Origin: Candidatus Azotimanducaceae bacterium
Lineage (GTDB): Bacteria > Pseudomonadota > Gammaproteobacteria > Pseudomonadales > Azotimanducaceae
Assembly (NCBI GenBank): GCA_965205545.1
Contig: OZ242170.1
Coordinates: 1,649,149 to 1,713,148 of the forward strand
DNA length: 64,000 nucleotides
Reading direction: 5' to 3'
The position numbers and the translations under genes were made by a program. The number at the start of each line of letters is the position of its first letter. The first letter of the stretch is position 1. The notes under the pieces were generated by a model. It did not search any database. It had not been told where the DNA came from and was given only the letters and a program-made list of their open reading frames with translations. Positions 27,728 through 47,789 of the stretch are shown here, in pieces.

Positions 27728-27890
27728 CTCAATATCGCACCCGAAGAGTGTTCGCGCTTGATTCTATATTGAAATTGTGTTCTTTCTTCGCTAGTGAACA
27801 GGCGTCAGGTCACTGCAATAAGTAAACGCATTCTAGATGGGCGACCTGGGCAAATGCCTGTGCTTCAGATCAGTCTTCCCGCGCCGGAGC

Positions 27891-28613: not shown

Positions 28614-28771
28614 TGGCGTCCTATGCTTTGGAGAATGGCAGGTTTGGCACTGAAGGAGTCCAAGCGTCAAAATGCATTCGATTTTGTCTTCTAATCTCTA
28701 CGAAAGTTCTAGCGAAACCTGTTTGCTGCAACGCCGACTTGAGCGGGCAGGTCAGATTGCGGGCTGCTCGA

Positions 28772-29533
28772 TCAGTTGCCGCTCGGTGTGGACGAACCAG
28801 TCAAGTCTCCAGTTGGGCCAGTCGGTATTGCACCTGTACTATTTCCTTCCAACAAGCTATTCACATCCTGCAATGCAAACTCGGCCTTGAAGTTGCATGC
28901 CATGCGTGCTATATGGGATCCTGCAGGACGAGACATGATGCACTCCATGCCTGTAGCGTCGGGTCCATAGCGCTTCACATACTCGGCAACAACCGCGTCG
29001 ACTGCAGGAAGCAACTCTTCGGGTATCTTTCTCAACAACCTTCTGTAGTAGTTGCGGATGCTAGGATCGGTGTCCTTCGATGCCGCAACGCCAAGCCACC
29101 CCATCGCGCGCCAACCATCTCGCGGAACCTCCCCCAGCCCTTGCTGGTAGATGAAACCCAGACGAGCCTGCGCCATTTTGAATCCTTGCTTGGCAGAGGC
29201 AAGCAAGTAAGGAAAGGCCTTTTTGTATTGCCTGGTCCGATAGTAGTACTCGCCTCGATTGTGCACCATGTGGCGGTCTGCGAACGTCTGTAGATTGGGA
29301 AACTCCGGTTGCTGTCCCGTGACTATGATCTCTTCCATGATCTCGGTGGGTAGCGAAGGTGGCTGAACCTCCTCGCCACTTTCGGCAGTTATTGTTTCCT
29401 CAGAAAATTCCGCTTCCTGCAATTCGTTTGACTCGCCACCGTGCGTGGGGGAATCTCCAGTTAGCTGTGCGCTAGCGGCAAACGTATACAGCATCAAGAA
29501 TGGAATTGCGACTGCAAGACCTATCTTCGGCAT
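28772..29533 (-). CDS. Secreted Sel1-like repeat protein, paralog 3 of 3
   Basis: The start is taken at MPKIGLAVAIPFLMLYTFAASAQ (29533; the ORF maximum is 29701). It contains MEEIIVTG, KKAFPYLLASAKQGFKMAQARLGFIYQQGLG, MGWLGVAA, and GMECIM...MACNF. Confidence 0.75.
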   Translation of the reverse strand: MPKIGLAVAIPFLMLYTFAASAQLTGDSPTHGGESNELQEAEFSEETITAESGEEVQPPSLPTEIMEEIIVTGQQPEFPNLQTFADRHMVHNRGEYYYRTRQYKKAFPYLLASAKQGFKMAQARLGFIYQQGLGEVPRDGWRAMGWLGVAASKDTDPSIRNYYRRLLRKIPEELLPAVDAVVAEYVKRYGPDATGMECIMSRPAGSHIARMACNFKAEFALQDVNSLLEGNSTGAIPTGPTGDLTGSSTPSGN

Positions 29534-29808
29534 GGCACCAGTAATATCACTTGGCCGGATTTGCATTATCTGGCAATCAGTTTGTACTTTTTCAGTGACA
29601 ATTTTGCTCTCGTTGGATTTTCTATTGTATGTGCATTCACAATCGGGTAATGTGGGAAATTCAATGCGGCACAGTGTCATCCCATTGTGAATCAACGTCA
29701 TGGGCAGTTGAACTCGGATCTTGTCGCGGGAAGGACATACCTAGCCAAGCTCGAACTAAAGTCTAAAATTCGACACCAAAAACCAACGGTCACAATACCC
29801 ATTTCGAT

Positions 29809-31461: not shown

Positions 31462-31528
31462 GGAATTCGACTTGCTTTGTAGCTGGTGTGCTTAAAATTT
31501 GTGCTTTCTGCTCAATCGAGAACTAACC

Positions 31529-32098
31529 ATGCGAAAGATTCGACTAGCCATAGCGGGGCTTGCCGCCCTCCCCCTTGCCCTGTTGGGGCAACTCAATGCA
31601 GGTGAATCAGAAGACCAAGTCACCCTCGAGGTTGGGGACGATGCGCCGGACTTCAGTCTGCCCGCGAGTGACGGCAAGGAGTACAAACTATCCGAAGTCC
31701 TGAAGGATGGACCTGTTGTACTTGCATGGTTCCCCAAGGCAGATACTCCGGGTTGCACCGCACAATGCAAATCCATAGCGAAGAATGGCGACATGATTCG
31801 CGAGTACAAGGTTTCATACTTCATGATCAGTGTCGACACCGTGGACGACAACACCAAATTCGCCGAAAAGTACTCTGCGGACTTCCCAATTCTTTCCGAC
31901 ACGACCAAGGAAGTTGCGAAAGAGTACGGCGTCCTGCGCACTATGGGTAGCTGGACAATTCCTGCCCGTGATACGTTCTATATTGGAACGGATGGCAAGA
32001 TTCTAAAGATCGAACGCAATGTGAAAGTTGATACTGCTGCGGAAGACATGGCTGCCAATCTAAAGGAACTCAACGTAGATCGTATCGAGTCTACGTAG
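31529..32098 (+). CDS. Secreted Bcp/PrxQ-type peroxiredoxin
   Basis: The start is at ATG 31529 (MRKIRLAIAGLAALPLALLGQLNAGE signal peptide). The active site is WFPKADTPGCTAQC. Confidence 0.85.
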   Translation: MRKIRLAIAGLAALPLALLGQLNAGESEDQVTLEVGDDAPDFSLPASDGKEYKLSEVLKDGPVVLAWFPKADTPGCTAQCKSIAKNGDMIREYKVSYFMISVDTVDDNTKFAEKYSADFPILSDTTKEVAKEYGVLRTMGSWTIPARDTFYIGTDGKILKIERNVKVDTAAEDMAANLKELNVDRIEST

Positions 32099-32168
32099 TC
32101 TGGCGCCTCCAAGAGTCGTGACCGGCTAGGCTTAAGGAGGTCACCAATTATCGCCGGCGAGTGTCGGG

Positions 32169-34283
32169 TTGACGAAGTACGTGCGCAGTCCCATCCAGTC
32201 TCTTGTTCAAGGAATCCTTGGACTTTCTTGGGTACTGGCTATGTGCTCGCTTACTCTAGAGGTGTGCGCGGATGACCAAGCGGATCCTCACTCGGACGCG
32301 AATGAGGAGGAGATTGAAGAGGTCGTTGTACGGGCCGACCCCGCTAGCTTAACCGCCCGTTCAAGTCAAGGAAGTGTGACTTCCGTCCGCGCTGCAGCTA
32401 TCTCGCTAATACGAGCGACTCATCCCAATGAAATACTGTCTCGTGTTCCTGGTGTCTGGGTGGTGCGTGGTTCGGGCCAGGAGCATCTAACTGGCATTAG
32501 GTCCGGAGTGCTAGCTGGAGCTGGCGCTTGCGGAGCATTCCTATTGCTCGAGGACAACATTCCAGTTCGGCCAGTAGGGTTCTGCAACGTTAATGGCTTG
32601 TTCGAGTTGAACACTGAACAAGCGGATGCGATCGAAGTACTGCGTGGTCCTGCAAGCTCAATTTTTGGAGGCAATGCGCTACATGGAGTCATCAATGTGC
32701 GCAGCTTCGTTGACACCAACACACCTAGTAGGTTGAGCGTTGATGCGGGTCCATACGACTTCCTGCAATTCCGCGTCGACTCTCGCAATAGAGATTCACG
32801 CTACAAAATGCACTCCACCAAGACCAATGGCTACCGCGAGTCCACTGGATACGCACAACACAAGGCAAATGTTCAGACAGCTGTTTCTTGGGGCAACTGG
32901 AAGTCCGCGCACACACTCTCAGCAACTTTGCTTGACCAGGAGACTGGAGGCTACGTAAACGGCTTCAAATCTTACGAAAACTCTCAGCTAAGAAGATCGA
33001 ATCCAAACCCCGAAGCATTTCGCGATGCAAAATCGGTGCGGGCGGCCAGTCACTGGATGGGCAAATACGCGGAAGGAAGTCTGTATATAAGCCCCTATGC
33101 TCGACGATCCACCATGAAATTTCTGCAGCACTTTCTGCCGGGTCAGCCTACCGAAAAGAACTCCCAGTCCAGTGTAGGTGTTGTTTCACAGTGGACGAAA
33201 ACCCATTCCCGACATTCCTTCACTTTGGGAACTCAAATAGAGTGGATGAATGCCCGTCTTCTTGAACAACAGATAAACGCCACAATTGGCTCACCTTTCC
33301 TGGTAGCTACCCGACCACAGGGAATTCACTACAACTTTGATGTCGCTTCAGCCACGTTCGCTGTGTTTGGGAATTCCATCGTTTCGCTCGGAAACGATGA
33401 ACTCAACTGCAGCCTACGATTAGAGCAGGTCAGGTACAACTACGACAATCTGCACCTCGACGGCAATACTCGGGACGATGGAACGCCTTGTGGATTTGGC
33501 GGATGTCTGTATACGCGGCCGGCAGACCGCAGCGACAGCTTCTATAACGGTGCAGTCCGGCTGGGCTACCGTCGATTTCTAGACGACCAAACCCGTATAT
33601 GGGGACTGGCAGGGTGGGGATACCGTCCACCACAGACAACCGAACTCTATCGATTGCAGAGCGGACAATCTGTGGCAGACTTGACGAGCGAAAGGCTTCG
33701 ATCGATGGAAGCAGGAGTGGAGGCCGTTCGCGACAACTTTGAAATCAGCATCGCTGCATATCGGGAGTCGAACAAAGACCTGATCTTTAGAGACGCCGAG
33801 GGTATGAATGTAAGCGACGGTGAAATCCTCGCTCAAGGTGTCGAGATTGAGTTCAACTGGAAAGCCACCACAATGCATAGTGTTGCACTGTCGGGCTCTA
33901 TAGCAAATCACGAATACAGATTCACCCGTACTGTTGCTAGAGGCGAACAGATCAATAAGGGAGCGGAAGTGGACTCGGCGCCTTCACTTCAAACCAGTGT
34001 CCGATGGATATTCCAGCCAATTCCCACGACTATGCTTGAGGTGGAATTTGTCCAAATTGGCCCGCACTATCTCAACGCGGCGAACACAGCAAAATACGGT
34101 GGACACACTCTAGCGCACATCCGAGCCAACTGGATTTTCGATGCGAATTGGCGCGGTTCGCTAAGGATTACGAATGCCTTGGACGCCAAGTACGCCGATC
34201 GCGCCGACTATGCGTTTGGCAACTACCGCTACTTTCCGGGTACTCCGCGGCAATTGTTTGCGGGAATCGAGTACGAGTGGTAG
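32169..34283 (+). CDS. TonB-dependent outer-membrane receptor
   Basis: 704 aa with a signal peptide and a TonB-box-like EEIEEVVVRA. Plug blocks are ILSRVPGVWV and IEVLRGPASSIFGGNALHGVINV. The C-terminus ends in FAGIEYEW with a terminal aromatic residue. The start is a TTG and is uncertain. Confidence 0.9.
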   Translation: MTKYVRSPIQSLVQGILGLSWVLAMCSLTLEVCADDQADPHSDANEEEIEEVVVRADPASLTARSSQGSVTSVRAAAISLIRATHPNEILSRVPGVWVVRGSGQEHLTGIRSGVLAGAGACGAFLLLEDNIPVRPVGFCNVNGLFELNTEQADAIEVLRGPASSIFGGNALHGVINVRSFVDTNTPSRLSVDAGPYDFLQFRVDSRNRDSRYKMHSTKTNGYRESTGYAQHKANVQTAVSWGNWKSAHTLSATLLDQETGGYVNGFKSYENSQLRRSNPNPEAFRDAKSVRAASHWMGKYAEGSLYISPYARRSTMKFLQHFLPGQPTEKNSQSSVGVVSQWTKTHSRHSFTLGTQIEWMNARLLEQQINATIGSPFLVATRPQGIHYNFDVASATFAVFGNSIVSLGNDELNCSLRLEQVRYNYDNLHLDGNTRDDGTPCGFGGCLYTRPADRSDSFYNGAVRLGYRRFLDDQTRIWGLAGWGYRPPQTTELYRLQSGQSVADLTSERLRSMEAGVEAVRDNFEISIAAYRESNKDLIFRDAEGMNVSDGEILAQGVEIEFNWKATTMHSVALSGSIANHEYRFTRTVARGEQINKGAEVDSAPSLQTSVRWIFQPIPTTMLEVEFVQIGPHYLNAANTAKYGGHTLAHIRANWIFDANWRGSLRITNALDAKYADRADYAFGNYRYFPGTPRQLFAGIEYEW

Positions 34284-34720: not shown

Positions 34721-35059
34721 GTCAATTCCAACCAGAAGTTTGCAAGAGTATAAGACACGACAGTTGATTTGAGGTAAATCGTCTGAGGCTCAAAACAAAT
34801 ATCGGATGCAGGGTCCCTCGAGTGGGTACACTAGCGGACTTGCAAAAGAGCCAATTTCATTGTTTGCACAAGAGTATGCGAAGGCGATGCAATCGAATTC
34901 GCATGGACCCTCGACAGAGTGCGCAATGGTTCTATGTGCACTAATACGCAGAAGGAACAAAGCTCGCTTACTAGCTACAAAGATCATCCGTTCATTGAAT
35001 TGGCACGAGAATTGCAAGTCGTTGAATAGACTGGGATATTCGCACGGGAGGCATGGCAA

Positions 35060-38000
35060 ATGAAATTGCAGCCAACAACTGTTCTCCGTGTTGCCGCAGC
35101 CGAAATGCGGACTTCGCGGCGATTGGTCCGGTTCTGGACAATAGTTGCCGTGCTCTCGATTATTTCACTCGCGGGCTACGCGCTCTCGTGCTTGATCTTG
35201 AGTTTCACTGCCCCCTACTCACCATCTCTGGGAGCGGCAACACCGCTGTATTTGCTGGGAGGAATCGATCCCACCTTCTTCCTAGCGTTCCAAATGGCCG
35301 CTCTTCTCCTGCTCTTCGACGCCGGGCACCAACATACTAGAAACCGCATCGACGAAGTGCTCGACTCCATGCCCGTAACAAACCTGGAGTACCTCGCAGG
35401 CAGGGTATTGGGCATCTCCTTCCTGCTGTGGATGGTTGCAGCCGTGAACGTTCTGCTGATGCAAATATTCGGCGTCGTGGCCAACGCATTTAACTTCAGC
35501 TACGCCGAGCCAATTCAATTGCATTCGATCATTAATCTCTTGCTCGTTGATGCACCGGCCACCTTGCTGATCTGGGGTTCGTTCGTTGTTTTTCTCAGCG
35601 TCGTGCTGCGCATTCGCGTTCTCACCGTGGCCGTGGCATTGGCGGCCATGTTCGCCTGGTTCTTCCTGGTTCTCAATGTTCCGTACTCATTGCTGTCCAT
35701 CGTATCGGCGTCGTCCAACGACAGCCTCTTTGTTTCCGATCTGATTCCGGAAATCGCGTCATGGCAAACGATCCTGGTGCGCATAGCCACTTTGCTCGGC
35801 GCTGTTGCGCTCGCCGTTGCCGCCGCAACTGCCATGCGACGACGCGATGGCGCATCGACTCTGGCGAGCGCGTCGACCATCCTGGTTGCCGTTGGCTTGT
35901 GCGGAGGAGCGTATGCGCTGAGCGCAACTAGCGTGCTTCAGGAGTTCGGCGATCCCGCCAAGTGGCACCAAGCCCACAAAGCGAACGCCTGGTCCGGCTC
36001 CGTCGACGTTCTGGAGATTTCGGGCACCGTTCAAATCGACCCGGGGAAGCGGCTTGACATCGACCTCAATCTCACCCTGCACGTTGAAGCCGACCTCTCG
36101 GAGCAACTGGTTTTCACGTTCAATCCAGGCATGACAATAGACAGCATCGAATTCGATGGCAGCCCAAAGAGTTTCACCTTCCAGAACGGATTGCTGCAAC
36201 TTGAGGTTCAAGATGCCCCGACTCTTGACTCACGGCACGTGATGCGTGTTGTGGCGCACGGGAAACCTAACCCTCGATTCGCCTATTTCGACAGCGCCTT
36301 GAACTATATGACCGACCCCGACGTGCCCATTCGATCGGTTCGCATCCTCGGCAAAGATGGCTCTGTGTTTCGTTCCAACTTTGTCGCATTGATGCCAAAC
36401 GTCTACTGGTATCCCGTGCCGGGGCTTGTGCGTGGAGACTTTGGTGCAGCGGAACAAGGAACGGATTACTTCAACGTGAGCTTGTCGGTTGAACTTTCCA
36501 AGAAGAGTCTCCGGTTAGTCGCCACTGGCACAACGGTCCAAGACGTGAACGGTGGATCTAATTATCGAGTGACCTCAGAAATGCCAATTTCAGAAATTGG
36601 CCTGTTTGCGGCGGATTACGAAAGTACTTCGCTTGATGTTGAAGGTGTGACATTCTTCATGCATTTGCACAAACGGCATGCCAAGAACATGGACCTTACG
36701 GCCGGATTCGAAGAAGCATTCGCATCCGAAGCCGCAAACCGGCTGCAGCAGCTTAAAGAACATGGTTTGTCTGTTCCTCAAAAAGGGATTAGCTTTGTTG
36801 AAGTTCCAAATCGGTTGCGTACGGTTGGAGGGGGATGGCGAATGGACAACATGAGCTCCCTGCCTGGTATTTCGCTGATGAAGGCACAAGCATTCCCCAG
36901 GACCAATTTCGATCTCGCAATCCGATTTGCTAAGCGTCAAGAAGAACCCGAGCAAGTTCCCGAAATGCTAGCGAATCTCTTGTTTCGATACTTCGAAATG
37001 GGAGTCGGAGTAGACAATTTGTGGACTACGGCACCTGAGCATCTATGGTCACATGTCACATCAGCCACGGGCGACCATGCTGAAGCGCTAGATCAAGTCG
37101 TACTTGCATTGATTTCCTTTCTGACAAGTACTCCTCAGCAGTTCTTTTCGATTTATTCAACGTTTCACGTAGCCAATACAACCGCCGTAAGCCCCTATAC
37201 CTTGAATTATGGTGCAGACCCAGAGGGATGGGCACCTTATCAGTTTGAGGTGCGCGAATCGGAGGTGAGCTACGGTGAGCGTCAGTCAGTTTGGACATAC
37301 ATGGAGAGCAATGGACTGACCGAACTTCCAACCCCGAACGGCAATCAAAGAGACATTGAATTATTGTTGACAAAAACCAACTCAATAGCGGACGGGCTGC
37401 TTCACGCCAACGGCATCGAAAAGATTCTGGGGTGGTTGACAGCTCTTCGTCTACAGTTTGCCGGTCAGAATTACACCCTCGACGATCTGATTCAGTTCGC
37501 AAAAGAGCACGAGATCGTGTACGACCCCTTCTTAACGGAATGGTTGGAAGAAACTCCCTTGCCGGCATACGCTTTTAAGCTAGTTTCGATGGAGCGAATC
37601 GCAGACGACGAGCACGGCGGTCCTCGCTACCAAACCTCTTTAGTTGTAAGAAATGTTGGACCAATTTCAGGGTTCATTAGGGTTGAATACCCTCATGACC
37701 AAAATGTTGATCGACGGTTTCCCATCCTGTTGTCAACCGAAGGGATTCGAATTGAAGGAAACTCCGCAAGACAGATAAACATAGTCAACTCATACGTCTT
37801 GAACCGGGTAAGTGTGGTACCTCATCTCTCGCTCAATCGCCAGCCAATGACACTTTGGCCGAATGCCGAGTCCATTTCCGAAAGCCCCGACGAAGAGCCC
37901 GCTCCATTTGAAGAGAGCAGCATTTGGATTCCGAGCTCCAACGGGATCGTGGTAGACGACCTCGATTCTGGTTTTTCTGCAAACCAAACTGTTCCCAAGA

Positions 38001-38521
38001 TCACGCAATCGGCAAATCTAGGTCCATTCGATTGGTTTCGAGAGCACAGATTGGAAATAGAACTGGAAGGCGGACTGCCAAGTTGGGGTCAAGAGTATGG
38101 TTCAGGTTATTGGGGTACTACTAGGCAATTGTGGAACAGATTTGCAATTGACAGTGCATATGGCAAGTACCGAAGAACTTCAACAAGCCTATGGAACACA
38201 CATTCAACGACATTCCCTACGGTTAGTTTTGAAGCCAAGACACCAGAAGCGTCTTTGTGGAGACTTGAATACCACGTTCCGATGACTCGTTTCATTATGG
38301 GCAGACGCAACACGATGAAATACCAGTTTGTTGTGTCCAACGAGAGCACTACCTACGATGTCGAATTCGAAAGCAATCCGGAAACCCCTGGCTGGCATGA
38401 GCTCGGACAATTCCAATTGACGGCGGGTCCGGTCGGCGTGGAACTCGTGCGAGCGGTTGGTTTTGGACCTGTCTTCGCAGACGCAATCCGTTGGATCAAA
38501 GCTGGTGACACACCGCGTTAG
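35060..38521 (+). CDS. Large membrane protein, paralog 1 of 3: ABC-2-permease-like 6-TM N-terminus, inactivated M1-aminopeptidase-like ectodomain, C-terminal beta-sandwich-like module
   Basis: 1153 aa, with the ATG 8 nt after GGGAGG. About 6 hydrophobic helices lie in aa 20-290. The block order then parallels M1 peptidases (WYPVPG, YRVTSEMPISEIGLFAADY, FVEVPNRLRTVGGGWRMD at the GAMEN position), but no HExxH occurs anywhere. The C-terminus runs IVVDDLDSGF...YGKYRRT...ADAIRW. Confidence 0.7.
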   Translation: MKLQPTTVLRVAAAEMRTSRRLVRFWTIVAVLSIISLAGYALSCLILSFTAPYSPSLGAATPLYLLGGIDPTFFLAFQMAALLLLFDAGHQHTRNRIDEVLDSMPVTNLEYLAGRVLGISFLLWMVAAVNVLLMQIFGVVANAFNFSYAEPIQLHSIINLLLVDAPATLLIWGSFVVFLSVVLRIRVLTVAVALAAMFAWFFLVLNVPYSLLSIVSASSNDSLFVSDLIPEIASWQTILVRIATLLGAVALAVAAATAMRRRDGASTLASASTILVAVGLCGGAYALSATSVLQEFGDPAKWHQAHKANAWSGSVDVLEISGTVQIDPGKRLDIDLNLTLHVEADLSEQLVFTFNPGMTIDSIEFDGSPKSFTFQNGLLQLEVQDAPTLDSRHVMRVVAHGKPNPRFAYFDSALNYMTDPDVPIRSVRILGKDGSVFRSNFVALMPNVYWYPVPGLVRGDFGAAEQGTDYFNVSLSVELSKKSLRLVATGTTVQDVNGGSNYRVTSEMPISEIGLFAADYESTSLDVEGVTFFMHLHKRHAKNMDLTAGFEEAFASEAANRLQQLKEHGLSVPQKGISFVEVPNRLRTVGGGWRMDNMSSLPGISLMKAQAFPRTNFDLAIRFAKRQEEPEQVPEMLANLLFRYFEMGVGVDNLWTTAPEHLWSHVTSATGDHAEALDQVVLALISFLTSTPQQFFSIYSTFHVANTTAVSPYTLNYGADPEGWAPYQFEVRESEVSYGERQSVWTYMESNGLTELPTPNGNQRDIELLLTKTNSIADGLLHANGIEKILGWLTALRLQFAGQNYTLDDLIQFAKEHEIVYDPFLTEWLEETPLPAYAFKLVSMERIADDEHGGPRYQTSLVVRNVGPISGFIRVEYPHDQNVDRRFPILLSTEGIRIEGNSARQINIVNSYVLNRVSVVPHLSLNRQPMTLWPNAESISESPDEEPAPFEESSIWIPSSNGIVVDDLDSGFSANQTVPKITQSANLGPFDWFREHRLEIELEGGLPSWGQEYGSGYWGTTRQLWNRFAIDSAYGKYRRTSTSLWNTHSTTFPTVSFEAKTPEASLWRLEYHVPMTRFIMGRRNTMKYQFVVSNESTTYDVEFESNPETPGWHELGQFQLTAGPVGVELVRAVGFGPVFADAIRWIKAGDTPR

Positions 38522-38602
38522 TTGGCAGCGACGGCACCATTCCGCGCAAGGCTACGGCAAGAGATCCAACCAAGGATTGCTTAAGATTGCCAATCCGAAT
38601 TC

Positions 38603-41600
38603 TTGAGTTCGGAAATTGGACTTGACAGATACGTGAAACTTAGTGAAGGCACGTCGTCGAGCACCACGGGAAGCAGAATCCTTGCTGCAACTCGGGCCGA
38701 ATTTGAAAACACCAAGCGGCTCACACGATTCAAGATTCTGCGAATCGTACTTCCGCTGGCTACGCTTGTCGCGTACTCCATGTCGTGCTTTATCCATGTG
38801 TTTGTCGCGCCGTATTCCCCAACCTTTGGTGCTGCGACTCCAAAGTACCTTCTGGAGAACATCGATCCCACATTCTTCCTGATCTTCCAGCTGGCTGCAC
38901 TAGTCCTCGTTTTTGATGCACCGCACCGCCATCGGCGCAATCAAATCGCCGAGGTCTTGGATACGAAACCTGTGTCGAATTTCGAGCTGCTTATGGGTCG
39001 AGTGATTGCAACAGCGGCATTGATGTGGCTACTTGTGGTAGTCGTCGTTCTCATTCCATGCTTGATTGGACTAATTGCCGCCGTGGGCGGGTTTGATTTT
39101 GCCGAACCCCTAGCAATTGCTTCGGTTTTGAACCTTCTGTTTCTTGATGCACCCATTACGCTTCTGTATTGGTGTGCGTTTGCCGTATTCCTGACCTGCA
39201 CTCTGCGATTTCGCGTTGCTGTCTTTGCCGTGGCTACAACTTTCATGGTCCTTTGGTTCTTCTTAACCATTGAATCGCCCTATTCCGTCTTGTCATTGGT
39301 GTCGCCGTCCTCAAACGACACTCTATTCATTTCCGATTTGACACCTGAACTGGTTTCAACGCCTGTCTTTCTGGTCCGATTGGCCACGCTCTTGCTTGCA
39401 CTTGCCTTTGTCCTGTTGGCAGCCAGCTGGGTCGAGCGGAACGACGGTACATCTCGGCCGAATGTTTGGGTTGTCGCACCACTTGTTCTTGTCGCATGCG
39501 CAGGAATGTACGGCTTGGCCAGTGCGATGGTCTTTGGCGCATTAGCGGACGAAAAGCGGTGGCGTGAATTTCATGCAACTGCAGAAGAAGGACGAGAGGT
39601 AGATCTCAAGCGAATCTCAGGCACTATGCAGCTGAATGCTAGATCCCATTTGGAACTCGATCTCAAATTGGAATTTGCTACCGATTTGCAAGACTCTGAA
39701 CCCTTTGTTTTTGCCTTCAATCCGGCAATGAACATCCAATCGTTGGAATTGAACGAGTCCAATGTCAGTTACACGTTTCAAGATGGTCTCATTCAACTGC
39801 ACAACCCCAATCTGCGTGAATCGAATTCTGACCAAACATTGCGAATCGTCGCACGGGGTCGACCCAACCCCCGTTTTGCCTACTTCGACAGCGCAGTCAA
39901 TTACCTGACTGATGCCGATGTCCCGATTCAGCTAACTTCTCTATTCGGCAGGGAAAACTCCCTATTCAACCCTCGGTATATTGCATTGATGCCTGCCATT
40001 TGCTGGTACCCAATTCCCGGTCCGATCAATGGGCAGTTCATGCGTCAACAGCGTGGGTCGGACTACTTCGATGTCGATTTGAATGTCAAGTTATCGCCAT
40101 CAAATCTCTCGCTTGTCGGTACCGGAATTACGAGTAGCCAAGGTGAAGAAGCATCGACCTTCAAAGTTGTGTCTCACGCACCAATGAGCGAAATTGGCTT
40201 GTTCGCTTCGTCATTTCTTCGCCTGTCGACCGAAATCGATGGAATGACTATTGCCATGTACTTCCACAGGAGCCACAGCAAGCACCTAGCCTGGATCGGA
40301 GACCTTGAACAATCCTTCCGAACGGAAGTACAAACGTGGCTACGACGCTACGTCGACCTCGGACTAACACTGCCGCAACAATCGTTGTCGTTTGTCGAAG
40401 TTCCAAGAAAACTACGCACAGTCGGAGGAGGCTGGCGAATGGACTCGGTCGCCGCGCTTCCGGGTGTCGTTCTTGTCAAAGAACACGGCTTCCCCACAGC
40501 TCCGTTGCCCATGGGTCTAGATCGACTTGAGGAGAGAATCGCCGACCGGGAGCAACGCCAGGCAAGCCAGACTGCCCTTGTAGTGCAATACATGGCGCGC
40601 GGATTGGAAACGGACAATCTGTGGGTCAGTCTGCCTAACACCTTTTGGTCGGAAGTAACTTCTGCCACAGGAGAATACGCGCAAGCTCTTGACCAAATCG
40701 CTCGCTCCCTTATCGGGTCAATAGCACCCAATCCTCGTCAATTCTTCTCGATCTACTCAAGTTCATACGTTGCACACATGACTGGTGTAAACCCCTTTAT
40801 ATCCGGCGAATTCTTAGGGACCGTTCTTTACGACCGACCAGTGCCATCGCCCGTTCAATCGTTTGCTGACGACTATGGCCGGCGCGCGTCGGTGTGGAAT
40901 TATGTCGAGACTCTCGCATATTCGGATTTGCCTACGAACAACAATCAACGCGACCTCGAATCAATGCTGTTCAAAAGCAACGAAATTGCTAGAGGATTGC
41001 TCTCGGTAAACGGCGAGGAGAAGGTATTCAAATGGCTTTCCAACTTGCGAAGGAGATTCGCCGGATCCAACTACACACATCGAGACATGCTGGCGCTAGC
41101 CGAAGAGCATGAATTGATTGTTGATCCATTTCTTACCGACTGGATAAGAAACGCCTCGCTTCCTGGCTATATTGTTTCTCGAATGAGTGTTGATCGAATT
41201 GCCGACGATGCTAGAGGCAACCCCCAATACAAGACGAGTGTGACAGTTAGAAACATGGAGCCAGTTGGTGGATTTGTGCGACTGCAATACCCAACTGAAG
41301 AGACGTGGAGCTGGATGTTTCCCTACTACACGCAATCAAAAGGGGTTTACGTTAGTGCAAAGACTTCTACGCGCATAAACCTTATCACTCCCTATGAAGT
41401 TCGCACTGCTCGACTGCTTCCGGGTCTTTCCCTGAATCGAGGTGCGATTAGCCTACGAAAATCCTCCTCGACTATCGGTGAACTACTCGAGGGCCAGCCT
41501 CCCCCGTTTGCGCAGGCAAGCGAATGGATACCAACCTCCGACAGCGGAATCATCGTCGACGATCTCGATGCGGGATTTACAGTTACTCAACCGGCTCCCA

Positions 41601-42112
41601 ATTTGGCGCGTCCGACGTCTCTAGGTCCCATGGGGTGGTTTGCGCCTCCACGTCTCCAGTTGGAGCTGGACAGTGGTTTGCCCTACTTGGGGACCTATTA
41701 CGCACGCATTTCCGAATTCCGTGTTGCTCGCGGTACTTGGGGACGCATTGTCGAAAGCTCTGCGTACGGCAAGTATCGAAAAACAGTAGCGCAGGCTTGG
41801 ATCAAAGACAAGATCCACACTGCGCAGTTCACGACGGAGTTGCCTGAATCCACCTTGTGGAGACTCTCGTTTCATGTTCCTCGGAGTTGGCGACCGGGTC
41901 CGAATGTGGATTTGCAGTGGCAGTTCAAGATTTCCAACGAGAGCGAGAATTGGTATCGCGAATTTGACCTAGGTTCCAAAGTGCCAGGGTGGAATTCAAT
42001 CGGAGACTTCGACCTGCCCAAAGGCGCCATTAGTGTGGAACTGGCTGGCACTTCCAAACCTGGGCATGTCTACGCCGACGCAATTCGCTGGGCTAGAGCA
42101 ATCGATCCTTAG
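38603..42112 (+). CDS. Large membrane protein, paralog 2 of 3 (same architecture)
   Basis: It is collinear with paralog 1: NIDPTFFL, FDAPHRHRRN, SSNDTLFISD, RFAYFDSA, ALMPAICWYPIPG, FVEVPRKLRTVGGGWRMD, IIVDDLDAGF, YGKYRKT and ADAIRW. There is no ATG near the 5' end, so the start is either the TTG at 38603 or the GTG at 38633 (VKLSEG). Confidence 0.7.
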   Translation: MSSEIGLDRYVKLSEGTSSSTTGSRILAATRAEFENTKRLTRFKILRIVLPLATLVAYSMSCFIHVFVAPYSPTFGAATPKYLLENIDPTFFLIFQLAALVLVFDAPHRHRRNQIAEVLDTKPVSNFELLMGRVIATAALMWLLVVVVVLIPCLIGLIAAVGGFDFAEPLAIASVLNLLFLDAPITLLYWCAFAVFLTCTLRFRVAVFAVATTFMVLWFFLTIESPYSVLSLVSPSSNDTLFISDLTPELVSTPVFLVRLATLLLALAFVLLAASWVERNDGTSRPNVWVVAPLVLVACAGMYGLASAMVFGALADEKRWREFHATAEEGREVDLKRISGTMQLNARSHLELDLKLEFATDLQDSEPFVFAFNPAMNIQSLELNESNVSYTFQDGLIQLHNPNLRESNSDQTLRIVARGRPNPRFAYFDSAVNYLTDADVPIQLTSLFGRENSLFNPRYIALMPAICWYPIPGPINGQFMRQQRGSDYFDVDLNVKLSPSNLSLVGTGITSSQGEEASTFKVVSHAPMSEIGLFASSFLRLSTEIDGMTIAMYFHRSHSKHLAWIGDLEQSFRTEVQTWLRRYVDLGLTLPQQSLSFVEVPRKLRTVGGGWRMDSVAALPGVVLVKEHGFPTAPLPMGLDRLEERIADREQRQASQTALVVQYMARGLETDNLWVSLPNTFWSEVTSATGEYAQALDQIARSLIGSIAPNPRQFFSIYSSSYVAHMTGVNPFISGEFLGTVLYDRPVPSPVQSFADDYGRRASVWNYVETLAYSDLPTNNNQRDLESMLFKSNEIARGLLSVNGEEKVFKWLSNLRRRFAGSNYTHRDMLALAEEHELIVDPFLTDWIRNASLPGYIVSRMSVDRIADDARGNPQYKTSVTVRNMEPVGGFVRLQYPTEETWSWMFPYYTQSKGVYVSAKTSTRINLITPYEVRTARLLPGLSLNRGAISLRKSSSTIGELLEGQPPPFAQASEWIPTSDSGIIVDDLDAGFTVTQPAPNLARPTSLGPMGWFAPPRLQLELDSGLPYLGTYYARISEFRVARGTWGRIVESSAYGKYRKTVAQAWIKDKIHTAQFTTELPESTLWRLSFHVPRSWRPGPNVDLQWQFKISNESENWYREFDLGSKVPGWNSIGDFDLPKGAISVELAGTSKPGHVYADAIRWARAIDP

Positions 42113-42187
42113 CAGTCCCTTACGCAATACCAGTGGCACGAAAATTGCATTAAATGTCAGTGCAATAGCCTCGTGGAGTTCTAGGCA

Positions 42188-45100
42188 ATGTCCGCAGTTC
42201 CGTCCATCTCCAAGATTCTCTCTGTGGCTGCCGGAGAGGTCCGAACATCTAGGCGACAAGTACGATTCTGGACCATAGTCTTCCTTTTGTCGTTGTTTTC
42301 CCTAGCTGGCTATGGACTGTCATGCTCCTTCCTCGCCTACGCTGCAACGACCTCTCCATCCTACGGCACTGGCATTCCCCAGTACCTGCTGGGCAACATC
42401 GATCCCTCCTTCTTCCTCATGTTTCAAATGGCCGCACTGTTCCTATTGTTCGACGCGTCGCACCAGCACAAACGGGATCGCATTGCAGAGGTGTTGGACT
42501 CAAAGCCGATTTCAAATTTCGAATACTTGGCCGGTCGAGTACTCGGTACTTCCGGTTTGCTGTGGATCGTCGTAGTGTTGAACATTCTGGCGATGCAAGT
42601 GTTCGGCTGGATAGCAAAAACGACGAACATCGCTGTTGCTGATACGCTGCAGGTTCACTCGGTTCTCAACCTGGTCTTCTTGGATGCACCTACGACATTG
42701 TTGATCTGGTGTAGCGTTGTGGTCGTGCTCTCGAGCCTATTGCGCATGCGCGTTTTGGTTGCGGCAGTCGGAGTCGGGCTAATGTTCGCGTGGTTTTCCT
42801 TGGTGCTCGAATCCCCGTATTCGCTGCAGGCAATCGTTTCCCCTTCCTCAAACGACTCGCTATTCGTATCCGAATTGCTACCTGAACTTGCTTCGCCGTC
42901 AGTCCTTGCGATTCGAGTCGGTACCGTCCTAGTGGCACTAGCACTACTAGCAATTGCAACCGTAATACTTCCGCGACGTGACGAGAATGCCCAAATTACC
43001 AACTTGCTCTCACTCACCGCAGGAGGAGTTGGTGCGTTGCTGGCGGTTTGGGGTTCTTGGAACCATGTTGCGCAAGTCAACGTTGCCGACCAGTGGGCGG
43101 AGGCACACAAAAACTACAAATGGGATGCGCAAACTGATTTAGCTTCAATTAGCGGAACGGTGCGTATGGAACGCGGCCGTCTCGCCATTGACTTGATCTT
43201 GAATGTTGAATACGAAACAACCAAATCTGACGAGCTCGTATTCTCATTCAATCCCTCAATGAGTATTCAGTCTTTGGAAATGAACGGAAACTCCACCCCG
43301 TTCACATTCGAAAACGGCCTGCTTGTAGTTGAGAATTCTAGGTCGCCATCCGAACGTAGCGCATATACGCTACACATCGTTGCGCATGGCATTCCCGACT
43401 ATCGATTTGCCTATTTGAACAGTGCATTTGATTATTTGAGAGATACGAGTGTGCCGCGTCAAGCAATCGCTCTATTCGGAAGTCACGCATCGGTCTATGA
43501 TTCGAGGTATATAGCACTAATGCCAGCAGTAAATTGGTATCCGGTTCCAGGTCCGTTACAACACGGCTACACCTCACTGCAGCATGGCCTGGACTACTTC
43601 GATGTCGATCTTACTGTAGCCCTTGAAAACGACGATTGGCAATTGGTCGGGCCAACGGCATCGATTCAAATTGAAGAACAAGCCAATGCCTATCGAGTTG
43701 CCTCCGAACAGCCCATACACGCAATTGGGTTGTTTGCGTCGGATTTCGAAAGTGCGTCAATCGATATCGAGGGAACGACATTCGTCGTGTATTTGCACAA
43801 ACAGCATGCATCTGGCCTTCAATTGATTGAGGAAATTGACGAAACAGTTCGCAACAAAGCCGACACTTGGCTGCACAAGTTCGCTGAGCATGATTTAGCG
43901 ATCCCAAATCGTTTGGTCTCTTTTGTTGAAGTGCCTAGACGATTGCGGACGGTCAGCGGTGGCTGGCGGATGGATTCCATGCAAACACTACCGGGACTTG
44001 TGCTCGTAAAGGAACATGGCTTCCCCAACGTAAGAATGGATCTAGTGCAAAAGCGTCAATCCAATGACGAGGTCTCACTGTCACAAACGTTATTCGAATG
44101 GCTTGTCTATTACTCACAGCAAGGAATCGGGCCAGACGATGCGTTGTCAGGGCTAGCGGCGAAGATCTTGACCCACTCAACTTCTGCAATTGGTCCATAC
44201 GCCCAGCCTCTGGATACTGTCCTTCAATACTTGACCGCATTTGTTGGCCATGACGATGTAGACGACTTCTTTGACAGCTTCTTCAACGTTCATTCGACGA
44301 TCCACTTTGCAGACACGACCGCAATTAGCCTGTTTGAAGGAGTTACTGGCATTGAGGATGGCGTGAGCAATGCCGACGTGCCAAGTTCCATGCCCACCCT
44401 ACATGGACTACGCGAGAGGCACTCGACGCGTACATCAATCTGGAATGATTTGGAGATCGTGAGCTTTGAGGATCTTCCCACGGGCCACGGGCATAAGCGT
44501 GACCTGGAGTTTTTCCTATTCAAATGCAGAGAAATCGCTCGCGCGCTCTTTTCGATCAACGGCGAGGAGCGTGTCCTCAGATGGCTGGCAGCCGTAGTGA
44601 ACCACAAGCAGGGCAAAAACTTCACATACGACGACCTAATCACAATAGCTGAACAACACGAGATTGTGACGGACCCGTGCCTAACGCAGTGGATTTCTTC
44701 GGCTTCCCTACCTGGATACGCAGCCTCTCCCTACACCACGGTACGAATTCAAGACGACGAGCGCGGCAACCCCCAGTATCAAACAAGTGTCGCTGTCAGA
44801 AATACAAGCAATGTCGCGGGGTCCGTGCATCTGCAATATCCAACCGAAGAAACCTGGAATTGGACGCATCCATACTTAGGGAGCAGCAAAACTGTTCAGA
44901 TCGACGGAAATTCGACCAAACGAATCAATTTCGTTACTGATTACGAAATTCGAAGCGTTTACTTGAATCCGGGGCTTTCGCTAAATCGAGACATACTTGG
45001 ACTATCCAGAGATCCCTCCTCGTCCACCGAATTGACAAATCGTGAACCAGCAAGCTACGAAACGATCGATTCGTGGTTGCCACCATTCGAAGAAGGAATC

Positions 45101-45652
45101 ATAGTCGACGACCTAGACCCGGGGTTCGTGGTCAACCAGCGAGCGCCACGCACCGCGCGTCCTTCGCGCGTGGGTCCTAGGGCATGGTTTCGGATGCCTC
45201 GCCTCGACGTCGAAATGGACCATGGGCTTCCGGTTAGAGGTCGCTGGATGTTCGAGTGGCACCCGCCAAGAGGAGTCTGGACACGAGTGGTAGAACCGCG
45301 CGCGTATGGGAAATATCGAAGGACGGCAGCGCGATTCTTTAGCAGGGGACACAATCCCCAAGCCGCATTCGTGACAGAAATACCAGAATCCACAAAGTGG
45401 CGTCTTGACTACCACGCGCCGCGTTCACTAGGCGATAGCTGGTATCGAGGCTTAAAGTACGAACTTGTCATAACCAGCGACACAAAGTCGTGGAATGCCG
45501 AATTGGATGCCCACAACTGGAGCATCGGATGGAACGTCGTCGACGATTTTGACTTGAATGAAGGTGCAGTGCGAGTAAATCTGGTAGGGATATCGCAGCA
45601 TAGCCTGTTGATTGCTGACGCCGTACGATGGACCAAGATTGCAGGACAATGA
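42188..45652 (+). CDS. Large membrane protein, paralog 3 of 3 (same architecture)
   Basis: 1154 aa, collinear with paralogs 1 and 2: NIDPSFFL, FDASHQHKRD, SSNDSLFVSE, RFAYLNSA, ALMPAVNWYPVPG, FVEVPRRLRTVSGGWRMD, IIVDDLDPGF, YGKYRRT and ADAVRW. Confidence 0.7.
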   Translation: MSAVPSISKILSVAAGEVRTSRRQVRFWTIVFLLSLFSLAGYGLSCSFLAYAATTSPSYGTGIPQYLLGNIDPSFFLMFQMAALFLLFDASHQHKRDRIAEVLDSKPISNFEYLAGRVLGTSGLLWIVVVLNILAMQVFGWIAKTTNIAVADTLQVHSVLNLVFLDAPTTLLIWCSVVVVLSSLLRMRVLVAAVGVGLMFAWFSLVLESPYSLQAIVSPSSNDSLFVSELLPELASPSVLAIRVGTVLVALALLAIATVILPRRDENAQITNLLSLTAGGVGALLAVWGSWNHVAQVNVADQWAEAHKNYKWDAQTDLASISGTVRMERGRLAIDLILNVEYETTKSDELVFSFNPSMSIQSLEMNGNSTPFTFENGLLVVENSRSPSERSAYTLHIVAHGIPDYRFAYLNSAFDYLRDTSVPRQAIALFGSHASVYDSRYIALMPAVNWYPVPGPLQHGYTSLQHGLDYFDVDLTVALENDDWQLVGPTASIQIEEQANAYRVASEQPIHAIGLFASDFESASIDIEGTTFVVYLHKQHASGLQLIEEIDETVRNKADTWLHKFAEHDLAIPNRLVSFVEVPRRLRTVSGGWRMDSMQTLPGLVLVKEHGFPNVRMDLVQKRQSNDEVSLSQTLFEWLVYYSQQGIGPDDALSGLAAKILTHSTSAIGPYAQPLDTVLQYLTAFVGHDDVDDFFDSFFNVHSTIHFADTTAISLFEGVTGIEDGVSNADVPSSMPTLHGLRERHSTRTSIWNDLEIVSFEDLPTGHGHKRDLEFFLFKCREIARALFSINGEERVLRWLAAVVNHKQGKNFTYDDLITIAEQHEIVTDPCLTQWISSASLPGYAASPYTTVRIQDDERGNPQYQTSVAVRNTSNVAGSVHLQYPTEETWNWTHPYLGSSKTVQIDGNSTKRINFVTDYEIRSVYLNPGLSLNRDILGLSRDPSSSTELTNREPASYETIDSWLPPFEEGIIVDDLDPGFVVNQRAPRTARPSRVGPRAWFRMPRLDVEMDHGLPVRGRWMFEWHPPRGVWTRVVEPRAYGKYRRTAARFFSRGHNPQAAFVTEIPESTKWRLDYHAPRSLGDSWYRGLKYELVITSDTKSWNAELDAHNWSIGWNVVDDFDLNEGAVRVNLVGISQHSLLIADAVRWTKIAGQ

Positions 45653-46325: not shown

Positions 46326-46658
46326 ATGTTGACGGCAGAAAATGCGCTTTTTTCACTAGTTTCGACTTTTAACGCTTTGAGCGAAGAACGACGTCTAACA
46401 CGTATGGTTTACGACGCCTTTGTTGCCGTCGTGGAGTCCGGACGGAGTGAAATCCGTCCGGGAGACATTGTCCAATTCATGCGCGAGCAGAACCATCCAA
46501 TGGGAATCTGGAACGTGAACGGGGAGCTAACCAAACTGAAACGGCTCGGCATAGTCCGATTGGACGAAGACAGCGCCACATGGACTTTGATTCCCGGAGT
46601 GGACTTCGAGGAAGTTTCCATGAAGCCGAACGGAGAGGCAACTACTTCGAGCGATTAA
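46326..46658 (+). CDS. Hypothetical protein (~110 aa)
   Basis: The ORF starts at ATG 46326 (the track begins at TTG 46269). I recognise no motif. It is hydrophilic with a helical N-terminus. Its 3' end overlaps the convergent ispA by 17 nt. Confidence 0.4.
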   Translation: MLTAENALFSLVSTFNALSEERRLTRMVYDAFVAVVESGRSEIRPGDIVQFMREQNHPMGIWNVNGELTKLKRLGIVRLDEDSATWTLIPGVDFEEVSMKPNGEATTSSD

Positions 46659-47523
46659 CACAGAGATTCGCAATCTCTGCCAAGATTGAGTCGCGCATGT
46701 CCATGCGCTCTAGTACCTCAAACGCATTGTCAAGCAATTTCTTAGCCTTGATTTGAGCTCCCTCAACTCCGATGTACGTTACGTAATTGAGCTTCCCCGC
46801 GGTGCCGTCGGCTTGTGCGGGCTTGCCCAAGATGTCTGAATGCTGCGTTGCATCCAAAATGTCATCAGTGATTTGAAACGCCGCTCCCACGAAGCCTGCA
46901 AACTCGCTTAACGATTGAAATTCGGCTGTAGCGGGATCAAATCCCGCTACGACCGACCCGATCTCAGCACTGGCGCGAAACAATGCACCGGTTTTTGCGT
47001 CATTCAAAACGTCCAGTGTCGAGGAATCTGCAACGGTGCGATTCTCCAGTTCCATATCCATGGCCTGTCCACCGACCATGTTTGCCCAACCCCCAGCTTC
47101 CATCAGGACTTTGAGTGCATCCACCCGTTGTTGCGAACTGAGTTCTCGGCATTTCGCGAGGGTCTCATAGGCAAGCGATTGCAGCGCATCCCCAACGAGA
47201 ATGGCAGTCGTGGTCCCGAACGCCGCATGGCAACTTGGTTTCCCGCGACGCATTGACGCGTCGTCCATGTCGGGCAAGTCATCGTGCACAAGAGAATAAG
47301 CATGCAAGTACTCGACGGCCGCTGCTGGACCAAGAGCCGCCTCCAGTGACCCGTTGAGGCCAATCGCACTTGCGCACACCATACTTCCACGCAGTCGCTT
47401 TCCCCCATTCAAGACGGCATACTTCATACCAGCGGAGAGTTGGGTCGAATGCTTGGATTCAAACGACAGGTCGGACTCCAGAAAGTCGTTCACACGCCGC
47501 CGAATTGCCTGCAAGCCAATCAT
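46642..47523 (-). CDS. ispA: (2E,6E)-farnesyl diphosphate synthase
   Basis: The two Asp-rich motifs LVHDDLPDMDD and FQITDDILD are present. The start is taken at ATG 47523, downstream of the xseB stop (the ORF maximum is 47616). Confidence 0.92.
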   Translation of the reverse strand: MIGLQAIRRRVNDFLESDLSFESKHSTQLSAGMKYAVLNGGKRLRGSMVCASAIGLNGSLEAALGPAAAVEYLHAYSLVHDDLPDMDDASMRRGKPSCHAAFGTTTAILVGDALQSLAYETLAKCRELSSQQRVDALKVLMEAGGWANMVGGQAMDMELENRTVADSSTLDVLNDAKTGALFRASAEIGSVVAGFDPATAEFQSLSEFAGFVGAAFQITDDILDATQHSDILGKPAQADGTAGKLNYVTYIGVEGAQIKAKKLLDNAFEVLERMDMRDSILAEIANLCVNRSK

Positions 47524-47543
47524 GCAAATAAAGCTCTTTGGTG

Positions 47544-47789
47544 CTAAGAGCTGGTTGAATCGTCGACCGAAAGCTGTGCGATGCGTTCTTCCGCTTCCCT
47601 GAGCGCTTCTTGACACTTGCGGGCTAATGCGACTCCCTTTTCAAACGCCGTGAGGGATTGCTCAAGAGTCAAATCTCCGGACTCCATATCCTGAACCAAT
47701 GATTCGAGTTGCTGAATTGATGCTTCAAAGTCAATCGTCGAAGCATTCTCTTGTTCCTCACTCCGTTCTGTGTTTTCGTGATCGGACAC
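47544..47789 (-). CDS. xseB: Exodeoxyribonuclease VII small subunit
   Basis: 81 aa. FEASIQQLESLVQDMESGDLTLEQSLTAFEKGVALARKCQEAL is the XseB pattern, and the gene is upstream of ispA as usual. Confidence 0.9.
   Translation of the reverse strand: MSDHENTERSEEQENASTIDFEASIQQLESLVQDMESGDLTLEQSLTAFEKGVALARKCQEALREAEERIAQLSVDDSTSS

Follow-up and report, generated by a model that had tools for sequence, protein, structure and literature searches.

The window analysed here, a stretch of 64,000 nucleotides from contig OZ242170.1 of a Candidatus Azotimanducaceae bacterium, contains three tandem genes, referred to below as copies 1, 2 and 3. Structural models and profile comparisons indicate that their products join the membrane domain of a type V (ABC-2) ATP-binding cassette (ABC) exporter to a periplasmic ectodomain, which is a diverged homolog of the M1 aminopeptidases, appears to have lost catalysis and ends in a domain resembling carbohydrate-binding modules (CBMs). 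We propose that the three proteins are non-catalytic ligand-binding modules carried on a dimeric ABC-2 scaffold, with an ABC ATPase docked in trans, a proposal that we hold and doubt in about equal measure. The genes are arranged as follows.

35060 to 38521, plus strand: copy 1, 1153 residues, ATG start; ABC-2-type membrane domain, dead M1-like ectodomain and CBM-like C-terminal domain
38522 to 38602: spacer of 81 nt between copies 1 and 2
38603 to 42112, plus strand: copy 2, 1169 residues from the listed TTG, start uncertain; architecture as in copy 1
42113 to 42187: spacer of 75 nt between copies 2 and 3
42188 to 45652, plus strand: copy 3, 1154 residues, ATG start; architecture as in copy 1

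An original prediction, made from the sequence by itself, had described three collinear genes of these lengths and spacings, and the open reading frames (ORFs) and a three-way alignment confirm it. The genes lie head to tail, are intact and align from end to end. Copies 2 and 3 are each 43-44% identical to copy 1, with a mean column identity of 65% in the three-way alignment, and the identity between copies is even over all domains (35-54%). The shared sequence blocks quoted in that prediction are all present, with the correction that copy 1 reads GIDPTFFL and not NIDP. When copy 2 is read from the TTG it has about 17 more N-terminal residues than copies 1 and 3; translation could alternatively begin at a GTG 30 nt further on. 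The parts of copy 1 on which the argument turns are listed here.

35060 to 35989, plus strand: residues 1-310, with an amphipathic interface helix (5-20), six type V/ABC-2 transmembrane (TM) helices and a seventh TM helix (267-296)
35327 to 35404, plus strand: residues 90-115 (RNRIDEVLDSMPVTNLEYLAGR), cytoplasmic loop between TM2 and TM3 that contains the predicted coupling helix for an ATPase, a short helix at residues 97-103 in the models
35990 to 36670, plus strand: residues 311-537, equivalent of M1 domain I, beta-rich; in hhalign, P1 357-537 pairs with PepN ~58-200
36671 to 37564, plus strand: residues 538-835, equivalent of M1 domain II by hhalign, thermolysin-like and without the catalytic residues
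36830 to 36847, plus strand: residues 591-596, GGWRMD, vestige of the GxMEN exopeptidase motif, in which only M-D pairs with M-E
36986 to 37000, plus strand: residues 643-647, RYFEM, site of the lost HExxH zinc-binding motif by hhalign, in columns with little conservation across the family
37565 to 37939, plus strand: residues 836-960, probable equivalent of M1 domain III, a beta-sandwich with model strands at residues 837-954
37940 to 38518, plus strand: residues 961-1153, Golvesin_C / CBM6-35-36-like beta-sandwich with the motifs VVDDLDxGF, YGKYRRT and ADAIRW

The full-length AlphaFold2 model of copy 1 was built on a 98-sequence alignment of the family and has a predicted local distance difference test score (pLDDT) of 88.6 and a predicted template-modelling score (pTM) of 0.88. 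It is helical over residues 5-308, beta-rich over residues 315-537 and mixed alpha/beta, then helical, over residues 538-830; a beta-sandwich (837-960) and a second beta domain (963-1147) follow. A Foldseek comparison of this model with the PDB gave 214 matches at E≤0.001, and the best 50 were all M1 aminopeptidases, with PfA-M1, IRAP, PepN, ERAP2, EryP and PSA among the best matches. These 50 have E values of 3e-16 to 8e-15, a probability of 1.0 and 8-12% identity over 650-700 aligned columns, and given alignments of that length, residues from about 311 to 960 of the ectodomain are taken to represent M1 domains I-III. The assignment of residues 836-960 to domain III is a probable one that follows from the length of the Foldseek alignments, since the hhalign and HMMER matches to PepN and aminopeptidase N (APN) stop at the border of domains II and III.

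Searches of the PDB by sequence, with profiles of 3 and of 98 sequences, returned nothing significant, the best match being an aminopeptidase N at E 0.11. There was no Pfam match to Peptidase_M1 or a related family even at E<1, and NCBIfam contained no family matching the window proteins, GldF at E 0.14 being the only hit. The link to M1 was therefore settled by fold and by profile-profile comparison alone. Against PepN by itself, the family profile gave a weak local match in hhalign (P1 769-864 with PepN 380-468, E 0.0036, probability 9%), which agrees with a sub-threshold HMMER match to an aminopeptidase N. Against a 7-sequence M1 alignment, consisting of E. coli PepN and plasmid-borne M1 genes, the result was a probability of 90% with E 1.5e-6 over 383 columns (P1 357-836 with PepN 58-447). 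Because this comparison is significant, the ectodomain is a diverged M1 homolog and more than a look-alike. The M1-like ectodomain of the original prediction is thus upheld by the hhalign result and by the identity of the best 50 structural matches.

The same alignment shows what became of the active site. The zinc-binding residues H297, E298 and H301 of PepN fall on R643, Y644 and M647 of copy 1, and in two independent alignments Y381 of PepN falls on L770. The third zinc ligand of PepN, E320, falls in a stretch that is poorly aligned and unconserved in the family. All five canonical catalytic positions carry non-liganding, poorly conserved residues. Some vestiges can be recognised by hhalign: K383 of PepN is kept as K772, and M263-E264 of the GAMEN motif correspond to M595-D596 of GGWRMD, in which G591, G592 and M595 are kept in at least 90% of the family. 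HExxH, HxxEH and GxMEN are absent from all three window copies, and at the homologous place neither HExxH nor GxMEN occurs in any of the 246 full-length family members examined, although a stray HExxH occurs elsewhere in the protein in five of them. The catalytic Tyr, too, has been replaced throughout these members. Since none of them carries the motifs where they belong, the catalytic apparatus was lost at the root of the family and not at the window locus; the disappearance of the peptidase motifs, as originally noticed in the three copies, is family-wide. These replacements make it likely that the ectodomain is non-catalytic throughout the family.

The helical domain IV of M1 enzymes, which forms a lid, is also absent, and a beta-sandwich stands in its place. 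A comparison with carbohydrate-binding-like beta-sandwiches had been recommended, and the C-terminal ~190 residues indeed appear to be Golvesin_C/CBM-like. With Pfam PF25275 (Golvesin_C), copy 1 scores 26.4 bits (E 8e-6) and copy 2 scores 26.0 bits (E 1.1e-5), both below the cut-off of 31.6, and copy 3 gives no match; two relatives exceed the cut-off, P0239 with 44.9 bits and P0231 with 32.9 bits. Domains of the Golvesin_C type are CBM6-CBM35-CBM36_like_2 carbohydrate-binding modules, known from xanthan lyase and golvesin; the Bacteroides lectins Cbeg4/5, which bind glycans, are predicted to contain the same module (PMC9166713). No other part of the protein has motifs as invariant as those of this domain, namely DDLDxGF, W1025-x-R1027, R1038-x-T1040, W1112 and D1141-A-x-R-W.

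Turning to the N-terminal region, hydropathy together with the positive-inside rule predicts seven TM helices, an inside N terminus and an outside C terminus, which places the ~850-residue remainder, after about residue 300, in the periplasm. The full-length model of copy 1 agrees with this topology. The ~850 extracytoplasmic residues of the original prediction are borne out on both counts; of its roughly six hydrophobic helices in an ABC-2-type arrangement, the arrangement stood and the number became seven. A separate AlphaFold2 model of residues 1-312 (pLDDT 79.7) was used as a Foldseek query against the PDB, and the best match was NosY of NosDFY(L) (7o0y_D, E 9e-5), followed by ABCG5/G8, PmtCD, CcmB, ABCG25, a mycobacterial efflux pump, ABCA7 and ABCH, with TM-scores, normalised to the target, of at most 0.62. 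This model contains the interface helix, the six TM helices and the coupling helix between TM2 and TM3 that mark the type V membrane fold. In Pfam, copy 2 scores below threshold with ABC2_membrane_3 (E 0.54), and a distant relative, P0237, reaches 31.2 bits with ABC2_membrane, for which the cut-off is 31.6 (E 1.5e-7). A scan of sequences limited to the TM region was otherwise nearly empty, one of 21 scoring E 0.001. On the model evidence, the N-terminal ~310 residues fold like the membrane domain of a type V (ABC-2) exporter. The description of this region as an ABC-2-like permease is sustained by the Foldseek matches, by relatives close to the Pfam thresholds and by a sister clade that lies behind an ABC ATPase gene.

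This sister clade is about 28-31% identical to copy 1. In 15 of its members in the tree, an ABC ATPase ORF of 310-390 residues ends at the start of the fusion gene (ATPase-linked loci, in our numbering: L036, L039, L040, L042, L044-48, L052-54, L056, L059, L061, L084 and L086). At L047 the ATPase ORF matches Pfam ABC_tran at 6.8e-27, and behind it come the fusion gene, an HlyD-type adaptor, an AcrB-type resistance-nodulation-division (RND) pump and a 1592-residue RND::ABC_tran fusion; at L086 the order is ATPase, member, member, adaptor, RND. L084 is an unlabelled metagenome scaffold with the conserved ATPase, and the 1132-residue gene next to it was taken as a family member. Two paralogous fusion genes follow one ATPase at L052, L053, L061 and L086, and two paralogous permease genes behind one ATPase are the classical signature of a heterodimeric permease. 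The cognate ATPase is of the COG1131 type and is called 'ABC-type multidrug transport system ATPase subunit' in one source. It is strongly conserved, with 73-98% identity among the best 120 of 6,806 matches, and these best 120 include genomes with ATPase-linked operons.

A side observation concerns the last gene of these operons. At L047:17643-22421 it encodes a protein of about 1600 residues in which a complete AcrB-type RND pump (ACR_tran 1.6e-139) carries an ABC ATPase domain at its C terminus (ABC_tran 2.8e-26), and an RND-ABC ATPase fusion also ends the operon in L039, L040, L042, L044, L048, L053, L054, L056-L061 and L067. RND pumps are driven by protons, and a covalently attached ABC ATPase is unusual.

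Several observations weigh against an ATPase acting in trans on the window proteins. A six-frame motif scan found no ABC ATPase in the 64-kb window, where the only ORF with a Walker A motif is RadA. The original statement that the locus has no ATPase gene therefore holds for the window, including the immediate surroundings of the block, where a cognate gene might have been overlooked, but it does not extend to the whole family, in which the sister clade is ATPase-linked. No adjacent ATPase was found for any of the 26 orphan-group members of the clade to which the window copies belong. Within 10 kb of the orphan-clade genes the only ABC ORFs are those for importer ATPases of the DppD/F type, on the opposite strand, for an ABC-F protein and, 5 kb upstream in L009, for an unassigned ABC ATPase of 210 residues. 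Finally, among the best 120 of the 6,806 ATPase orthologs, none was seen from the genome of the window or from two complete relatives that contain only orphans, and this lack of an ortholog among the matches listed is no more than suggestive.

These observations would be explained if the ABC-2 domain were an ATP-independent, dimerising anchor that presents the dead-M1/CBM module in the periplasm, where the module would serve as receptor or scaffold or would regulate another envelope enzyme, a role for which catalytically dead LytM factors such as EnvC provide a comparison. Every orphan-clade locus examined is without an adjacent ATPase, and the two complete relatives, with 5-6 dispersed loci and no ATPase-linked member among the loci retrieved, are also those that contribute none of the best 120 ATPase matches. 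An orphan pair placed after a sensor pair of the BlaI/BlaR1 type (see below) adds a hint of envelope signalling. We rate this alternative as somewhat doubtful, and yet the consistent absence of the ATPase makes it nearly as likely as docking in trans. It is opposed by the pattern of conservation. Type V transporters of solved structure touch their ATPase through the interface and coupling helices, and the TM2-TM3 loop of copy 1 may, by analogy, be such a contact. No stretch is better conserved than this loop (RNRIxEVLDSKPVSNxExLAGR) when the ATPase-less clade is compared with the ATPase-linked one; the two share the form RxRIxEVLDxxPVSNxExLxGR at an overall identity of only ~28%. Together with the N-terminal helix it forms the most conserved part between the clades, and the membrane domain has the lowest ratio of nonsynonymous to synonymous substitution rates (dN/dS) of any copy 1 domain, 0.09. 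A mere anchor would need neither. In addition, genomes exist that possess orphans plus one ATPase operon, so that sharing in trans is possible; one holds both the ATPase operon of L086 and the orphan tandem pair of L002. Because of the conservation of the loop and the low dN/dS of the copy 1 membrane domain, we favour an ATPase in trans.

The orphan pair of L002 has surroundings of its own. The pair (L002:8411-16956) directly follows genes for a BlaI-like repressor (Penicillinase_R) and a BlaR1-like M56 sensor, which may hint at regulation by envelope stress, and two unannotated genes, of 592 and 542 residues, lie downstream.

The proposal of a ligand-binding module on an ATPase-driven scaffold may be pictured as follows. 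The ectodomain would bind and not cleave; without the lid the former substrate groove would be open, and a lectin-type domain is attached. An open groove of the peptide type beside a domain of the glycan-binding type makes a peptide or glycopeptide ligand, from the envelope or from a host, plausible. Type V membrane domains act as dimers, so that the window proteins are expected to form homo- or heterodimers, and heterodimers are favoured because relatives have tandem paralogs behind a single ATPase gene. The three window proteins would then probably pair with each other or with themselves. Ancestrally, one fusion gene or a pair of them would have stood between an ATPase gene and the genes for an adaptor and an RND pump, with ATP hydrolysis powering the membrane domain. 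The output might be either expulsion of a substrate captured by the ectodomain or a mechanical movement of the ectodomain, comparable with the action of NosFY on NosD. The weakest step is that an ABC ATPase with its gene elsewhere in the genome would continue to dock on the window copies. The earlier verdict that no function can be assigned remains true at the experimental level.

A bolder version is that the clade of the window is wholly free of the ATPase, that its hetero-oligomeric paralogs are periplasmic receptors, through their dead-aminopeptidase and lectin-like ectodomains, for glycopeptides of the host or the envelope, and that the expansion to at least 6-8 genes per genome is an adaptation to sponges and marine particles. 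We consider this unlikely as a whole; if true, a type V ABC fold coupled to a pseudo-peptidase would for the first time be seen to work without ATP.

The ectodomain might also still be an enzyme, with a new catalytic or metal site formed by H540, E581, E609, D469 and Y409 and processing a periplasmic peptide or glycopeptide. N355, Y409, D469, H540, E581, R587 and E609 are invariant polar residues of the family, and Y409, D469, H540, E581 and E609 are each kept in at least 96% of 354 members; the vestigial M-D pair aligned with the M-E of GxMEN points in the same direction. Set against this are the five canonical positions with their poorly conserved, non-liganding residues, the lack of HExxH and HxxEH in the window copies and of HExxH at the homologous place in the 246 members, and the copy 1 orthogroup itself, which has Ala at position 609. 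In copy 1 and its close ortholog, KEHGFP has become KAQAFP (residue 609 is encoded by 36884-36886), while Glu is present in 96% of the 354 members, including copies 2 and 3. This substitution may mark a functional divergence of copy 1. Judged from these residues, a surviving enzyme is improbable.

In a neighbour-joining tree of 110 family members, the three window copies fall into three separate orthogroups. The same three-gene order is present in L005 (88% identical) and L006 (66%), and each copy groups with its positional counterpart. In OZ241909.1 the orthogroups are dispersed: L008 is of the copy-1 type, L016 is of the copy-2 type, and the copy-3 orthogroup has the syntenic slot at L003/L012 to itself. 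The original question of copy number in relatives thus has two answers, the three-gene order in L005 and L006 and a single copy-3-type member at L003/L012. The slot itself, AhpC - TonB-dependent receptor - [member(s)] - polyprenyl synthase, recurs in 11 loci (L003, L005, L012, L013, L017, L022, L023, L026, L027, L031 and L033), with variable orthogroup and copy number; its flanks in the window are at 31499-34283 and 46642-47616.

With L005 and L006, respectively, dN/dS is 0.20 and 0.11 for copy 1, 0.27 and 0.14 for copy 2, and 0.21 and 0.15 for copy 3. Among the sites conserved in at least 85% of the family, only 10 differ in any window copy, and of the family-invariant residues the single notable loss is that of Glu609 in copy 1. 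By these sequence measures all three genes are under purifying selection, and since they belong to three shared orthogroups, the triplication is old and has been maintained, as the original prediction of an old duplication under selection had supposed. A recent, redundant duplication on its way to pseudogenes without distinct roles is very improbable: copy number in the syntenic slot does differ among relatives (1 versus 3) and a few of them have frameshifted copies (e.g. L015, L028 and L079), but the window copies are all full length, only 43-44% identical and members of orthogroups common to other genomes, and these separate orthogroups, with dN/dS of 0.11-0.27, refute pseudogenisation. The synonymous divergence (dS) between 35060-45652 of the window and L005:9971-20594 is uneven along the genes, in copy 1 ranging from 0.73 in domain I to 0.06 in the C-terminal domain, which suggests, from the sequences, mosaic recombination or gene conversion between strains.

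The family is large. A word-indexed search turned up 105 relatives, each either without a name or entered as 'hypothetical protein [Gammaproteobacteria bacterium]'. When 1.84 billion representatives were searched exhaustively with a profile, the clusters (50% identity) numbered 2,344 at E≤1e-3, of which 1,030 reached E≤1e-30, and in nearly all of the best 150 clusters the length is 1110-1190 residues. A scan of GTDB species genomes gave 192 relatives; the 78 loci retained from these belong without exception to Pseudomonadales, 'Candidatus Azotimanducaceae' or unclassified Gammaproteobacteria metagenome-assembled genomes (MAGs). The retrieval favoured close relatives of the window copies, and the true taxonomic range may therefore be wider. 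At L085, on a MAG contig labelled Thermoanaerobaculia, the conserved ATPase (with 77% identity to that of Azotimanducaceae) is followed by a truncated ABC-2-like ORF, apparently the start of a member; either the family reaches beyond the Gammaproteobacteria or this contig has been mis-binned. Complete genomes, for example OZ242357.1 and OZ241909.1, hold at least 6-8 copies, and tandem arrays of 2-4 are common. Many of the MAG isolate names (COS, IRC, RHO, SB06xx) are ones that we take to denote sponge-microbiome bins. The family has no name in the sources consulted, and about 85% of its length has no Pfam or NCBIfam model. A tblastn search of plasmids with copy 1 gave no match, and one with PepN gave no permease fusion; no literature on the fusion family was found, and papers that mention 'Azotimanducaceae' say nothing of it.

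In the window the three-gene block has the same GC content as the rest and lies among housekeeping genes. Upstream are genes for septation protein A, PdxJ, AhpC and a TonB-dependent receptor, with a GYD protein on the opposite strand; downstream are polyprenyl synthase, PgpA, ThiL, NusB, RibD, GlyA, RadA, TauD and DnaB. No convincing promoter or terminator was found in the block, including the 81-nt spacer, and promoter-like sites were fewer than in shuffled sequences. An 85-residue ORF at 34806-35063 on the plus strand overlaps the start of copy 1 by ATGA; it was taken as non-coding, having no family match and a composition unlike that of a protein. At L001 a 111-residue ORF likewise overlaps the start of its family member. 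Elsewhere in the window (26900-29701, minus strand) are three tandem ORFs of 275, 259 and 309 residues, each with a sub-threshold Sel1 repeat. Eukaryotic-like repeat proteins such as the Sel1 type are typical of sponge symbionts, and these ORFs fit the apparent sponge origin of the closest relatives.

As a whole, these results describe a family that is large and unnamed and that marine Pseudomonadales carry in many copies per genome, among them abundant MAGs with isolate names like those of sponge symbionts. It is an unusual union of two well-studied folds, an ABC-2 membrane domain and a pseudo-enzyme, and it offers a natural comparison between one clade with ATPase, adaptor and RND pump and another with none. 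Knowledge of its ligand and energy source would add a case to the few ABC systems that move periplasmic partners and not solutes, and would also help to explain a prominent gene expansion in symbiont genomes.

Among known systems, the M1 aminopeptidases (PepN, PfA-M1, ERAP1/2, IRAP and EryP) share with the family the core of a beta-saddle domain I, a thermolysin-like domain II and a beta-sandwich domain III. The family keeps the lysine of Y-x-K-G (K772) and vestiges of 'IPDF' (VEVP) and of GxMEN (GGWRMD). In contrast to these enzymes it lacks HExxH, the third zinc ligand, the catalytic Tyr (Leu770 here), the glutamates that bind the N terminus and helical domain IV, and the window ectodomain is tethered to a 7-TM membrane domain in the periplasm. 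With NosY and the type V exporters (ABCG, PmtCD, CcmB and YbhFSR type) it has in common the fold of the membrane domain, and its relatives also resemble them in a COG1131-type ATPase directly upstream, two permease paralogs and an HlyD-type adaptor. The ybhGFSR layout of E. coli resembles this order of ATPase, permease, permease and adaptor. NosFY drives a periplasmic partner and not a classical solute, which makes it a plausible functional analogy. Unlike the type V exporters, the family adds a seventh TM helix and a fused ectodomain of ~850 residues, and the window copies have no ATPase gene.

The closest parallel in architecture is presumably the 'ABC transporter permease/M1 family aminopeptidase' of Bacteroidota and others, an ABC-2 and M1 fusion encoded beside an ABC ATPase. 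These fusions presumably keep the M1 motifs and match the Pfam and NCBIfam M1 models; literature searches and plasmid tblastn searches found no permease/M1 fusion with an intact site. Because databases presumably name such fusions with intact motifs, the general kind is known, though to our knowledge uncharacterised. The present family would differ from them in having no motifs, no match to an NCBIfam or M1 model, and a CBM-like end. That end, the C-terminal ~130-190 residues, matches the Golvesin_C domains of Dictyostelium golvesin, Bacillus xanthan lyase and the Bacteroides lectins Cbeg4/5; here it is the terminal module of a membrane protein, with putative glycan binding. What is new, set beside all of these, is a family without the catalytic site, with a CBM-like end, present in multiple copies and with one clade that has no ATPase.

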